64,000 nucleotides of DNA from Candidatus Babeliales bacterium (GTDB taxonomy: Bacteria; Babelota; Babeliae; Babelales; JANWKD01), in contig OY969622.1 in the NCBI GenBank assembly GCA_963701665.1, positions 832,001 to 896,000 of the forward strand, in the 5' to 3' direction. Positions 48,999-52,970 of the stretch are shown here, piece by piece. The notes beneath the pieces are model-generated. The model had not been told where the DNA came from and did not search any database. It saw only the letters and a list, made by a program, of their open reading frames with translations. The first letter of the stretch is position 1. Each line of letters starts with the position of its first letter. Position numbers and translations under genes: made by a program.

Positions 48999-51419
48999 GT
49001 GACCAATAATTCTGATAAACAGTACCGTGCTCAATCCATTCAAGTTATTGAAGGACTTGAAGCTGTCAGAAAACGCCCTGCCATGTATATTGGTTCAACG
49101 GGTAGTAAAGGCTTGCATCATTTGGTCTATGAAGTCGTCGATAACTCCGTTGACGAAGCACTCGCAGGGTATTGTACTTCCATTAATGTAATCTTACACA
49201 CGGATGGCTCATGCTCTGTTGAAGATAACGGACGCGGTATTCCCGTCGATATTCACCCATCTGCGGGTGTTTCAGCGGCCGAAGTGGTTATGACCAAATT
49301 ACACGCGGGTGGTAAATTCGATAAAGATACGTATAAATATTCTGGTGGTTTACACGGTGTAGGTATTTCCGTCGTAAACGCTCTTTCCAAAAAATTGTAT
49401 TTAGAAATTTATCGTGATGGAAACATCTATGCACAAGAGTATGAAAAAGGTAAACCATTAGCCCCTCTCAAGGTTATTGGCGAAACAAAAAAACGCGGTA
49501 CCTACATACGTTTTTATCCGGATCCAGAAATTTTCCAAGAAACGACAGAATTTAGTTTTGATATTCTTTCGGCGCGCCTTCGTGAACTCGCGTTTTTAAA
49601 TAAAAAATTAACGATCATCATTAGTGATGAAACGAACAACAAAAAACATGAATTCTATTTTGAAGGCGGCATCGTTTCCTTCGTTGAGCATATTAATGCA
49701 AAAAAGAAACCGTTATTCCCTGAAGTTATTTATTTCACCAATGAAGATGATCAATACATTCTTGAAGTTGCGATGCAATATAATGATGGCTATGGCGAAC
49801 AACTATTTTCTTTTGTAAATAACATTAACACGGTCGAAGGTGGAACGCACGTTACCGGGTTCAAAACCGCGCTTACCAAAGCATGTAACAAACGCGCGCA
49901 AGAAATTGGCATGACAAAAGAAGAAAATTTCTCCAGCGAAGACGTACGTGAAGGCCTTGTGTGTGTTATTAACATCAAAGTGCCAGAACCTCAATTTGAA
50001 GGTCAGACAAAAACAAAATTAGGGAACAACGATATCAAAGGTATTGTTGATTCTTGGACTTTTGCTGCACTTTCAACCTATTTTGAAGAGCATCCAACAA
50101 CGGCAAAATTAGTTTTACAAAAAGCTGAACTTGCACAGCGTGCGCGTGATGCTGCAAAAAAAGCGCGCGACTTAACGCGTAGAAAAACCGCTTTAGAGTC
50201 ACTCGTTTTACCCGGAAAACTCGCTGATTGCTCAAATGAAGATCCTGCTGATTCAGAATTATTTATCGTGGAAGGTGATTCTGCGGGCGGATCAGCTAAA
50301 CAAGCGCGCGATCGTGCTAACCAAGCAATTTTGCCACTCAGAGGTAAAATTTTAAACGTTGAAAAAGCGCGTCTTGATAAAATGCTTTCAAATGAAGAAA
50401 TAAAAACATTAATTTCTGCAATCGGATGCGGTATTGATCAAGAGTTTGATGTAAAAAAATCTCGGTATCATAAAATTATTCTCATGACCGACGCCGATGT
50501 TGACGGCGCGCATATTAGAACGTTATTGCTCACCTTCTTCTTCAGATACATGAAACCACTCATTGATAGCGGCTATCTTTATATTGCGCAACCACCACTG
50601 TATAAAGCTAAAATTGGCAAACGCGAAAGTTATCTCAAAGATGATAAGGCGTTCAAAGATTTTGTCTTTGACTGGGCGGCTGAATCCACCATGCTTTTTG
50701 CTGATAATAAAGAACTGGGTGGTGACGCATGGCAAAAAATTCTCACCGCGCTCAGCAAATATGATGACAGATTAGATTTGGTCTCACGCGATTTTAAAAT
50801 CATGTTTGACCACATTCATAATTTAGCACTTTTTTCTCAAGCGCATCCTTGGAAACAAGATGATGGCATAGATATATTGCTCCAAAATCTACGTGGATGG
50901 TTTAAAAAATATACCATCCAACTCAAACGAGAAGAACTCGGCCCTGATGTTATCGAAGGCGACACCCCAACGCCAGTACCAACTAAGCAAGTTATTTCGT
51001 TCAAAGCACTTACCAAACAATGGGATGTTGATGCTGATTTCTTCACCTCAGCAGAATTATCACAAGTGCTTACGGCACTCGAACCACTTGCTGTGCTAGA
51101 AAAAAATACATGGCGCTTACAAGTCATTGATAAAGAAAAGAGCATTGAAGGCAAAGGTTCCCTTAATTTATTGCGCGCGATCATGAATTTGAGCAAACAA
51201 TATATGACCGTTCAGCGTTATAAAGGTTTGGGTGAAATGAATCCTGAACAATTATGGGAAACCGCTATGGATGAAAAAACGCGCATTTTGCTTAAAGTTA
51301 ACATCGAAGATGAACTCGAAGCAGATTCATGGTTTGCGACGCTCATGGGCGATGATGTGCAAGGCCGAAAGCTCTTTATTGAAGATAACGGACAGTTTGT
51401 TAAAAACTTAGATATTTAA
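48999..51419 (+). CDS. gyrB: DNA gyrase subunit B
   Basis: [59 protein letters not shown] start after AAGGAG. Confidence 0.97.
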
Positions 51420-51510
51420 TAAATCTGCAATTTTTTTTGTAATTTAGCTGCATCTATTTTATACTGATTCATCATAATCTCTAAATAATTCTCTATTTGA
51501 AAGCATACTC

Positions 51511-52410
51511 ATGAGATCTCTTATTTACAAAAACTTAAGATTTTTATTAATTTTCATTACTTTTATTCCTATGCAAGCAATGGAAAAAAAATCACTAAAT
51601 ACGCCCCTTGATCAAGATAGAGCAATCACCGGATGTTTAACTGAACTCATAAACGATCACATTGATACAATCTTCAGCGAAAAACCAACTACAGTTAAAG
51701 ATGCCTTAATTAGAATTCAGTCCATTGCCAGAATAATCAAAACATCTCATCTCTATAGTGGTGATGCGGAGATTACCAAAGATGCACTCATCATTAATGG
51801 ACGTATTTTTCCCAATCACATACATCCTATTGTACCTCCAATTGCGGATCATTGGTCTAATATTATAGAGAACCCAGCGACACTTAATTCCCTGATCATT
51901 TCACATGAAAAATCAGTTGAAGCCATCAATATAATTCTTGGTACATTGCATAAAAAAGCTAACAATGAAAATGTTGAAATGTGCTATAAAGTAGTTAATA
52001 GTTTACCTCCTTGTGTAAGCGAACACATTAAATCTCAGTTTATTGCCAAGCATCCTTCAAGGAAGCATAATATTCTCTATAACTCAACTGGCACCATACA
52101 ACTCCTCCACTATAATAAAGATGGTTTGCTTATTGCAGCAAAACCAAATAAAAGCAGAATAGATATAGGAGTAGTATATAAGGATTTTTGCCATCAATAT
52201 AATGGTCCCCTTGATCGTGATTTCTCAAGTGCACTTCATAATTCACTTGGCCTTCTTAAGGCGCGAACTTTATATGATGTTTCAATAGAAACTATATTAA
52301 CACCGCCTTCTTTTGAAAAAAGATTAAAAAAACACGCGAAAAGAAATTCCAGACTTTTATCACAAAATGTTGAAGATAACGGGCAATTTGTTAAAAATCT
52401 CGATATTTAA
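51511..52410 (+). CDS. Secreted hypothetical protein (family with 53103 and 54115) ending in a copy of the GyrB C-terminal 12 aa
   Basis: Signal peptide then AMEK; KPTTVKDALIRIQSIARII family motif; ends [12 protein letters not shown]. Confidence 0.8.
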   Translation: MRSLIYKNLRFLLIFITFIPMQAMEKKSLNTPLDQDRAITGCLTELINDHIDTIFSEKPTTVKDALIRIQSIARIIKTSHLYSGDAEITKDALIINGRIFPNHIHPIVPPIADHWSNIIENPATLNSLIISHEKSVEAINIILGTLHKKANNENVEMCYKVVNSLPPCVSEHIKSQFIAKHPSRKHNILYNSTGTIQLLHYNKDGLLIAAKPNKSRIDIGVVYKDFCHQYNGPLDRDFSSALHNSLGLLKARTLYDVSIETILTPPSFEKRLKKHAKRNSRLLSQNVEDNGQFVKNLDI

Positions 52411-52970
52411 TTTTTTTCTAAAGATTTGGGCTGAAAATAATGGGTTATTTCACAAGAAGATTTGTTCAATTTTTGTCCTTTTAAGCAGAGCTGTGCTGTT
52501 ACCACATACATATCTTCTTGAGAAAGCAAATCATTATGGATAAAACAATTTTCACTAAGAGTTTTTGACCAAAACAAATTGTCACTTATTTCTTTTACTG
52601 TATATAAGTTAGTACCACTCGTAATACTAGGCAGACCTTCATAAAAAATGGCGCTAAAGCACAATAAACCGAAGAAACTTTTTTGATGCACAGGTTTAAT
52701 GTGTAAATTTTCTACTTTATACATCATTATGTCCTTAGAATCATAGTAGCGTTCTAAGGGTATCAGTGTTATTTCATCTAATGCCTGTCCTGATCGAAGA
52801 TTTAAAAGCTCTTTTTCATTATGGCTCAGCACCACATCATATTCACTTTCATTTGAAATAGAAGTAATACAAAAGCTGGGCGCTGCAAGCCTTGCTAAGC
52901 CGTTTTCCATGCTTTTGATACTAAAAAAACAGGTTATTACACCTAAAAATAGTAGCTTTTTGCCCACCAT
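52407..52970 (-). CDS. Secreted hypothetical protein
   Basis: G-rich RBS; signal peptide then SMEN. Confidence 0.7.
   Translation of the reverse strand: MVGKKLLFLGVITCFFSIKSMENGLARLAAPSFCITSISNESEYDVVLSHNEKELLNLRSGQALDEITLIPLERYYDSKDIMMYKVENLHIKPVHQKSFFGLLCFSAIFYEGLPSITSGTNLYTVKEISDNLFWSKTLSENCFIHNDLLSQEDMYVVTAQLCLKGQKLNKSSCEITHYFQPKSLEKN

Follow-up and report, generated by a model that had tools for sequence, protein, structure and literature searches.

An accessory gene closed by an allelic gyrB end, and tail-only duplications behind six other genes, in a Babeliales genome

Here, we describe an accessory gene (ORF 51511) that lies directly behind gyrB in the genome of a Candidatus Babeliales bacterium (assembly GCA_963701665.1) and that ends in a second, synonymously altered copy of the last 12 gyrB codons and their stop. 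The window is a stretch of 64,000 nucleotides of contig OY969622.1 (positions 832,001 to 896,000, forward strand). Its position behind gyrB probably results from an exchange of DNA by recombination between two related lineages of the Babeliales, as a gene capture with displacement of the gene end. The evidence comprises the repeated end itself, a sister species that lacks the gene, the pattern of divergence between the copies, and the recurrence of the same footprint at other genes.

The duplicated gyrB end and its gene island

The two gyrB ends, T1 and T2 (Table 1), form an ungapped repeat of 42 nt with five mismatches (88% identity), located in the codon pairs GGA/GGG, CAG/CAA, AAC/AAT, and TTA/CTC (two positions in the last). 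As an earlier note on this DNA had claimed, and as the alignment confirms, gyrB and ORF 51511 finish in the same 12 residues directly before the stop, 991 nt apart, with five synonymous differences and no non-synonymous ones (counted over approximately 6.2 synonymous and 29.8 non-synonymous sites). The likeness ends 2 nt before the first common codon and 1 nt past the stop, and the left part of the repeat includes 13 consecutive identical nt (TTGAAGATAACGG). An identity of 12 residues before both stops is far beyond chance: the peptide plus stop, searched as a degenerate pattern, was found in seven of the 261 genomes of the order, twice in this genome and once in each of the other matching genomes, and the reversed control gave no match. 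Between T1 and ORF 51511 lies a spacer in which no terminator was found and whose folding is worse than that of shuffled sequence; Rfam returned only two matches for the gyrB insert, both far below the gathering scores.

Table 1. Features behind gyrB and at two companion loci of the window, counted from its first letter
Feature	Position	Strand	Description
gyrB	48981..51419	+	812 aa, intact; proposed homologous anchor; Pfam HATPase_c, DNA_gyraseB, Toprim, DNA_gyraseB_C
Repeat copy T1	51379..51420	+	last 12 gyrB codons and stop; coding part 51381-51419
AT-rich spacer	51421..51510	+	90 nt, upstream of ORF 51511; one weak promoter-like site 51437-51465
Accessory ORF 51511	51511..52410	+	299 aa; hydrophobic N-terminal leader; ends in gyrB tail
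Repeat copy T2	52370..52411	+	allelic gyrB tail; gives ORF 51511 its last 12 codons and stop
Convergent ORF	52407..52970	-	187 aa; stop overlaps T2 stop (TTAA); 30% aa identity to the 197-aa ORF of the sister species
Rest of variable gyrB-tilS island	53103..56309	+	paralogues 53103-54101 and 54070-55080; 410-aa ORF 55077-56309
tilS-like PP-loop gene	56402..57409	+	conserved right border of island
hpf case	16341..17888	-	hpf-like gene 17750-18085 (-); T1 17888-17736; T2 16492-16341
hpf insert	16588-17712	+	YhcG/DUF1016 PDDEXK nuclease gene
Gene 14857 case	15304..15907	+	171-aa gene 14857-15372; T1 15304-15375; T2 15836-15907
Gene 14857 insert	15392-15775	+	127-aa gene between T1 and T2

Judged from its sequence, ORF 51511 belongs, in truncated form, to a genus-restricted family, whose members were found only in this genome and in the sister species of the same genus (G001). 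The family evolves fast, with counterparts in the two genomes only 30-43% identical. ORF 51511 tracks the family alignment up to ...RLLSQNV, after which its own last ~17 residues are swapped for the gyrB tail; the loss of these codons supports the in-frame fusion proposed earlier. Its paralogues in the island (53103 and 54070/54115) lack the tail, as had also been stated. Pfam gave no family for ORF 51511 at the curated cut-off and the protein atlas no usable match. No relatives were found outside the genus (83 metagenome and 45 genome pattern matches, none confirmed), and an exact 23-mer search of metagenome contigs gave no match. The protein database search gave a single near-identical variant of 271 aa, from a contig of 23,911 nt (99% identical; first 260 residues unchanged, two substitutions over residues 1-270), that stops 28 residues early and thus does not contain the gyrB tail. 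For annotation, the C-terminus of ORF 51511 should be read as a borrowed GyrB tail and not as a domain.

The empty site that the earlier note recommended seeking is present in G001, the one other species sampled for the genus, where the order is gyrB, a minus-strand ORF, family paralogues, and tilS, and ORF 51511 is absent. The minus-strand ORF of G001 (197 aa) directly adjoins the gyrB tail, whereas its counterpart in the present genome stands directly behind T2 and not behind gyrB itself. In two further genomes (G014 and G020), tilS directly adjoins gyrB. No further relics of a gyrB tail or of a tilS head were found in the island. The earlier note had also asked which tail matches gyrB of sister strains; with the sister gyrB (88% aa identity) the comparison divides evenly, G001 agreeing with the gyrB copy at two of the five differing positions, with the ORF copy at two, and with neither at one. 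Along gyrB itself no recombination tract was detected against G001, the share of differing codons for the same amino acid ranging from 0.28 to 0.48 across 60-codon bins, with 0.45 for the final one.

Constraint and recurrence of duplicated gene ends

Six more tail-only duplications, a class assigned by hand, bracket extra genes in this genome, behind gatB (repeat of 65 nt), secA (217 nt), hpf (153 nt), a class-I tRNA synthetase (51 nt), a HAD hydrolase (75 nt), and a small secreted-protein gene (gene 14857; 72 nt, five mismatches, one amino-acid change). One plain recent tandem duplication with its breakpoint inside a gene tail was found in addition (951977-952252 versus 952840-953118). Recurrence behind conserved genes, which the earlier note had suggested from a few cases, therefore holds up in the genome-wide search. 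Two of its three companion cases, at hpf and at 15304/15836, are real tail duplications around inserted genes; the third, at 36761/37808, has to be withdrawn, as no coding-tail copy is present there and a ~40-nt non-coding, terminator-like repeat stands on both sides of a minus-strand gene. The cases were curated by hand because tandem paralogues make up most of the raw counts of the first genome-wide tail scan (34 downstream matches, where internal control peptides gave 17-40), which are therefore uninformative.

The sister species again provides the reference state at several of these loci. It has no insert at gatB and hpf, with hpf followed directly by small secreted-protein genes; at the tRNA synthetase and secA loci it carries different genes in the insert position, with one secA tail only. 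No tail duplications were seen in 118 kb of relatives' loci, which is too little sequence to be informative.

Across the loci, the differences between copies are mostly synonymous, with pS/pN values of 0.52/0.018 for secA, 0.81/0 for gyrB, 0.37/0.018 for gene 14857, and 0.56/0.048 for the HAD gene. When the changes at six loci were polarised by G001, a distant outgroup that leaves this polarisation exposed to homoplasy, the T2 branch received 22 and the T1 branch 21; a neutral relic at T2 predicts ~83% of changes on T2, and the observed split has a binomial P of 9e-7. At gyrB alone, where 12 codons limit the power of the all-silent pattern, the model-based P is about 0.002. At secA, the constrained changes in T2 include codons upstream of any possible start codon. 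Because the changes are symmetric and mostly synonymous, the copies are best taken as alleles from two lineages. The earlier proposal that the tail came from another allele thus gains support, in that the copies act as two alleles under gyrB-type constraint and not as a gene end and its decaying relic.

Among the eight downstream copies, that of gyrB is the only one to extend a long ORF, since elsewhere the copy comes after cargo on the opposite strand or has stops in front of it. On this comparison of sequences, the in-frame fusion at gyrB looks incidental, and selection of the tail at the protein level, which had been offered as an alternative, is disfavoured at the gyrB locus.

The bracketed cargo is unrelated between loci (a YhcG nuclease, a WD40 protein, two ankyrin genes with an IS200-like fragment, and unknowns) and lies in either orientation. 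Neither the gyrB insert nor the seven other inserts examined contain an integrase, and the only two Xer-like tyrosine recombinases of the whole genome (at 729909 and 808919) lie far from the inserts, which agrees with the integrase-free route envisaged at the outset.

How the ends may have been displaced

In the reading that we favour, two related lineages with different genes downstream of gyrB would have exchanged DNA, one side of the exchange being guided by homology in or around gyrB and the other being an illegitimate join. The route could be homology-facilitated illegitimate recombination (HFIR). An equivalent route would be that of the model put forward for rhs C-terminal displacement, in which a circular fragment enters by a single crossover. 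Because incoming and resident DNA would each have had a gyrB end, two allelic ends of 12 codons and a stop would come to bracket ~950 bp (spacer and ORF body): gyrB would keep one end and stay intact, and the other would be left downstream beside the ancestral neighbour. The illegitimate join would have cut off the last 17 codons of the accessory gene and, by chance, have been in frame, so that the accessory protein ends in the GyrB tail and uses the gyrB stop codon. The chimeric end would then be a by-product and not a selected feature, and at least six other genes of this genome would have gained downstream neighbours by the same process. The mirror-image event, in which the downstream block was imported with its tail instead, is equally possible.

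The homologous crossover must lie outside the 42-nt repeat, because 42 nt at 88% identity is too short for an efficient RecA crossover; at the gyrB junction, the only visible microhomology is TT (2 nt) upstream of the repeat. RecA and DprA are intact in this genome; ComEC is matched only in part, with a TAA stop inside the matching stretch, so that natural competence should not be taken for granted. From the footprints we infer the recombination pathway, the import from another lineage, and any direction given to it; searches of the metagenome, genome, and protein collections yielded neither a donor nor a closer relative, so the case for import is drawn from divergence patterns only.

It is unlikely that ORF 51511 instead represents an intragenomic copy of a family gene that moved to the gyrB end with the resident tail, the tail being kept by selection on the accessory protein (e.g., as a functional C-terminal peptide). 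In its favour, the family is already present in the same island, T2 is translated within an intact ORF, and the tandem pair at 951977/952840 is clear and recent. However, T1 and T2 are followed by unrelated sequence, so there is no simple tandem unit at gyrB and tandem duplication was rejected there; only that pair and, in a looser sense, the HAD locus with its paralogous flanking genes show unit-unit repeat structure. The synonymous sites of the tail are near saturation (pS 0.81) in a fast-evolving family, in which a perfectly kept, borrowed 12-mer would be exceptional, and the same constraint is seen where T2 lies outside any long ORF (gatB, secA, HAD, and gene 14857). The near-identical database variant, moreover, stops before the tail.

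Site-specific integration of small cassettes that carry a replacement gene end, of the type of e14 and phage 21 at icd and with the recombinase acting in trans or since lost, is quite improbable. The integration of these elements into icd is reportedly the subject of work by Hill et al. in 1989. The layout of gene, new end, cargo, and old end is that of icd/e14/icdC (PMC13626634), and both the 13-nt identical block at the left of the gyrB repeat and the gatB insert, with its IS200-like Y1 transposase fragment and GC-rich palindromic repeats, could be read in its favour. Against this stand the eight inserts without an integrase and the distance of both Xer-like recombinases, the lack of a junction motif common to the seven loci by eye, repeats that vary from 42 to 217 nt, cargo in either orientation, and a gyrB insert without recognisable structured RNA or element ends.

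An assembly artefact that joined two co-occurring strains or species in one contig is hardly credible: the copies do differ as alleles would, and contigs from sequencing runs (the best-matching DNA run sharing 0.23 of sampled words, with no RNA run among the matches) are scattered 151-nt pieces of which none crosses the right junction, but the junction lies in unique sequence without a shared k-mer to cause a false join, the 299-aa ORF is preserved and its first 270 residues recur, with two substitutions, in an independent database protein, one 151-nt metagenome contig equals 51413-51563 exactly (though with only 7 nt on the gyrB side), the assembly consists of one contig and its contamination is estimated at 2%, and a copy divergence of 12-14% is at species level and would not collapse in an assembly graph.

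Several other element types were considered for the gyrB locus and rejected. A diversity-generating retroelement does not fit differences that are A/G, G/A, C/T, T/C, and A/C and thus not adenine-specific, with no reverse transcriptase among the neighbouring ORFs; integron, Tn7-like, and intron readings do not fit inserts without reverse transcriptase or integrase behind a gyrB that is complete upstream of the insert. A homing-endonuclease gene was rejected on the Pfam and protein atlas results for ORF 51511. Free-standing homing-endonuclease genes occur in fungal mitochondria at the 3' ends of genes whose end is duplicated (e.g., Allomyces atp6), where a foreign replacement C-terminus is followed by the inserted ORF and the displaced native end, and where in-frame fusions occur. 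Unlike these, the gyrB insert has no nuclease domain; only the hpf insert has one (YhcG PDDEXK), and to our knowledge this family is not a documented homing enzyme.

Relation to known systems and meaning for the organism

Gene-end displacement as a type is already known from rhs tips, T6SS arrays, and e14/icd. In rhs C-terminal displacement, incoming DNA brings a copy of its own of the gene's conserved 3' part, followed by new sequence, and the incumbent end is pushed downstream, where a direct repeat that is partial and varies in length is kept; the proposed mechanism is homologous recombination through circular intermediates, with no dedicated recombinase (Jackson et al., 2009; PMC2935791). 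Compared to that description, the present loci share the displaced end downstream, the direct repeat, and the lack of a dedicated recombinase. They differ in that the anchor is a housekeeping gene (gyrB, secA, gatB, and others) and not a polymorphic toxin gene, in that the new end is an orthologous tail accompanied by the gain of a separate gene and not a different toxic tip, and in that the host has a reduced genome.

A role for HFIR has been proposed in T6SS effector-immunity arrays (PMC5361080; PMC3240628). The likeness extends to incoming DNA that is joined at one end through homology with a conserved upstream gene and at the other end illegitimately, to old downstream genes that are kept and shifted, and to the absence of an integrase (PMC5361080). 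HFIR was defined by experiment in naturally transformable bacteria and in E. coli conjugation, whereas in the present genome it would be deduced from footprints. In E. coli, e14 and phage 21 in icd leave an icdC fragment; the gene is intact with an element-borne 3' end, the original end lies beyond the insert, and the copies differ mainly by synonymous or conservative changes, all of which resembles the situation described here (PMC13626634). As a prophage, however, e14 encodes a site-specific recombinase of its own and can excise, in contrast to the present inserts of 0.5-3 kb, which contain one to three unrelated cargo genes and no integrase.

A displaced gene end can be regarded as a dated footprint of gene gain, in which the repeat marks the insertion point, silent differences give the distance to the donor, and replacement differences give recency; it also lends itself to a simple genome-wide screen, in which each tail peptide is sought a second time, again directly followed by a stop, over the next few kb. 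A far broader and rather doubtful proposal is that the ends of essential genes are general landing pads in these obligate intracellular bacteria, at which DNA of co-infecting relatives is routinely captured by one-sided homologous recombination without mobile-element machinery, as a main route to gain and shuffle host-interaction genes (ankyrin, WD40, and secreted proteins) with chimeras now and then. If this were true, chimeras such as ORF 51511 with its GyrB tail would be material for selection, and the footprints, of which this genome of 1.34 Mb has at least seven, would record ongoing, datable exchanges between species, with donors at distances of pS 0.1 to 0.8. At the level of this genome, seven integrase-free footprints in 1.3 Mb point to plain recombination with related lineages as a source of accessory genes behind core genes, which bears on how reduced intracellular bacteria keep gaining host-interaction genes.

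The duplicated gyrB end

The 812-aa product of gyrB, which carries Pfam gyrase B domains, ends in ...[15 protein letters not shown], and the 299-aa product of ORF 51511, an accessory ORF 91 bases downstream, ends in ...[16 protein letters not shown]. The two gene ends align without gaps, and their five mismatches (GGA/GGG, CAG/CAA, AAC/AAT, and TTA/CTC) are all synonymous, bearing out the silently recoded GyrB tail described in the earlier note. Similarity starts 2 nt 5' of the first common codon and ends 1 nt past the stop; the sequences flanking the two copies are unrelated. 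When a degenerate pattern for the tail peptide plus stop was run over 261 genomes of the order, seven matched, with two copies only in the genome under study (G000) and one in each other, located at the gyrB end wherever this was examined; the reversed pattern, used as a control, had 0 matches among the 261 genomes. The duplication is real, and chance is excluded. In three relatives (G005, G007, and G023), the gyrB match is split (query ~1-438 and 429-812) within one open frame of 1077-1271 aa, which looks like an intein or other in-frame insertion.

More distant relatives (G014 and G020) have a tilS-like gene directly after gyrB, and in G000 and its sister species G001 a variable island separates gyrB from tilS. 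In G001, the sole other species of the genus among the genomes compared (gyrB 88% identical), gyrB is followed first by a minus-strand 197-aa ORF overlapping its end, next by four plus-strand ORFs (ORF 51511 has matches in three of them), and last by tilS. After gyrB, G000 has ORF 51511, a minus-strand 187-aa ORF, paralogues 53103 and 54070, a 410-aa ORF, and tilS, and its downstream tail copy adjoins the minus-strand ORF in just the way seen for the gyrB end in G001. The search for an empty site thus succeeded: G001 has the site without ORF 51511.

For ORF 51511, no match to a Pfam family exceeds the curated cut-off, the protein atlas gives no match, and searches with five family members found its family in G000 and G001 only. 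The protein tracks the family alignment up to ...RLLSQNV (...TLLTRIK in paralogues), beyond which the ~17 residues that close the other family members give way to the 12 GyrB residues; it is a family member cut short and joined in frame to a gyrB end. Selection of the tail at the protein level, offered earlier as an alternative, is disfavored on three grounds. A long ORF continues into the downstream copy at only one of eight such copies (the gyrB locus), the copy elsewhere coming after opposite-strand cargo or having stops ahead of it. A database protein of 271 aa, 99% identical to that of ORF 51511, ends 28 residues earlier (...PPSFEKN, then stop, near an A-rich run at window 52290-52340), so the ORF in that other assembly stops before the gyrB-derived tail. 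Finally, island genes evolve fast (30-43% identity between G000 and G001), and selection keeping the borrowed 12-mer perfectly conserved would be exceptional. The chimeric end is therefore taken to be incidental, and the likelihood that it is in use is small.

Recurrence across the genome

The whole G000 genome, a single contig of 1,337,192 bp, was screened: for each of 1239 ORFs (minimum 80 aa, none overlapping), the last 12 residues were sought in the 5 kb downstream, with at least 9 of 12 required. The raw counts (34 matches versus 17-40 for internal control peptides, tandem paralogues predominating) are uninformative; the matches were therefore inspected and a second, seed-and-extend scan was applied. 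Loci at which only the gene end recurs, with extra genes between the copies, were chosen by hand, giving seven cases. No insert encodes an integrase, and both Xer-like tyrosine recombinases of G000 lie away from the inserts; the claimed recurrent, integrase-free addition of genes is supported across the genome. At gatB and hpf, G001 is without the insert; at aaRS and secA, its genes are different ones, and it has one secA tail only. No tail duplication was found in 118 kb of relatives' loci, which is too little sequence to be informative.

Curated loci in G000, with the proportions of synonymous (pS) and non-synonymous (pN) differences between tail copies
Core gene	Coordinates	Repeat	Insert	pS	pN
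gatB	genome 53734-55212	65 nt	IS200-like Y1 transposase fragment, two ankyrin genes	0.10	0.024
secA	genome 116924-119611	217 nt, 25 mismatches	731-aa minus-strand gene	0.52	0.018
171-aa gene (14857)	window 14857-15372	72 nt	127-aa gene	0.37	0.018
hpf-like gene	window 17750-18085	153 nt	YhcG PDDEXK nuclease gene	0.12	0.036
gyrB	window 48981-51419 (+); genome 880981-883419	42 nt, window 51379-51420 and 52370-52411	ORF 51511, window 51511-52410 (+)	0.81	0
HAD hydrolase	genome 1003242-1003967	75 nt	360-aa gene	0.56	0.048
class-I aaRS	genome 1183981-1186464	51 nt	WD40 gene	0.72	0.14

Among the companion cases proposed earlier, hpf and 15304/15836 stood as coding tail copies and 36761/37808 did not: there, a ~40-nt AT-rich, terminator-like non-coding repeat (window 36804-36843 and 37844-37880) flanks a minus-strand 287-aa gene (36821-37684), possibly as an insertion footprint. 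An eighth candidate (951977/952840) was rejected as a plain, near-identical tandem duplication; it is recent (G000:C1:951977-953118, outside the window), and its ~863-nt unit, which begins within the tail of a 127-aa gene, extends into the next gene, so plain tandem duplication also yields tail copies in G000. At G000:C1:609866-610635, also outside the window, a mirror-image case was observed: the first 20 codons of the gene at 610575 (maf-like, judged by its N-terminus alone) recur 709 nt upstream in a repeat of 61 nt with 1 mismatch, and the interval between the two holds a 189-aa ORF and a relic of an ankyrin gene tail. Displacement can thus affect the heads of genes, and not their tails only.

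Other repeats were also recorded. GC-rich repeats with the motif GTCATYCCGA begin directly after stop codons, at G000:C1:53690-53732 (after the gatB stop, adjoining the Y1 transposase fragment at 53238-53495), at ~2425-2480 of locus L014 (after the gyrB stop of G003), and at ~801000 in G000. Three identical 131-aa Y1 transposase genes lie in tandem at G000 1253001-1254528. Three tandem ORFs of ~1550 aa with near-identical ends (...TNLALAA) and many internal repeats, whose motif is AAKIVHVC on the opposite strand, occupy G000:C1:824470-838587 (window 1-6587 plus upstream) and form a large repetitive surface-protein-like array.

Origin of the tail copies

Were the downstream copy a neutrally drifting relic and the core copy limited to silent change, ~83% of changes would be expected on the downstream copy. 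At the six loci polarized by G001 as outgroup, 22 sites set the downstream copy apart and 21 the core copy (binomial P 9e-7), and the relic reading is rejected. Differences between copies are overwhelmingly synonymous across the curated loci. The secA copies differ mutually at 25 of 204 sites, and each from G001 at 41-45; constrained changes in the downstream secA copy include codons upstream of any possible start. The gyrB locus alone has low power (12 codons; model-based P ~0.002) and fits the series. Mostly silent differences and equal branch changes indicate that both copies were working gene ends through most of their separate history, and are alleles of two lineages, recently united, in keeping with the claim of a tail from another allele. 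Donor distances run from well below that of G001 (hpf and gatB) up to about that of G001 (gyrB).

These loci are best explained by recombination between lineages that are related but have different genes downstream of a shared core gene. One side of the exchange would be homologous and the other illegitimate, and each partner would bring its own gene end, leaving the core gene whole and the other end past the insert. At 42 nt and 88% identity, the gyrB repeat lacks the length for a crossover site, and the left junction has only TT in common, so this pathway is one that we infer. Either the gyrB-side tail and ORF 51511 were incoming, or the import was the downstream block, with the second tail copy at its head, and it removed the end of an ORF 51511 already resident. 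At the five differing sites, G001 agrees with each copy at two. For the proposed entry at the gyrB 3' end, the in-frame fusion and the two alleles stand, and either tail may be the replacement and the other the displaced original. Along gyrB no recombination tract can be seen, and metagenome, genome, and protein collections gave neither a donor nor a closer relative. Read support is thin, and no read contig spans the right junction. RecA and DprA are intact in G000. The sole ComEC (PF03772) match, at G000:C1:41319-41744, covers about half of the profile and has an in-frame TAA, which may point to a broken or divergent competence channel.

Gene-end displacement in known systems

C-terminal displacement at rhs is proposed to proceed via homologous recombination with circular intermediates (PMC2935791), and T6SS effector-immunity arrays via homology-facilitated illegitimate recombination (PMC5361080), the same proposed process as at the G000 loci. 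The architecture left by e14 in icd, with its icdC fragment, is alike, although e14 has its own recombinase (PMC13626634), whereas the G000 inserts have no integrase. Gene-end displacement in G000 is not a new mechanism; the loci are a clear natural illustration, repeated across the genome, of gene capture in which a gene end is displaced, and they are of interest for how many footprints there are, for their lack of mobile-element machinery, and for having produced a chimeric protein.
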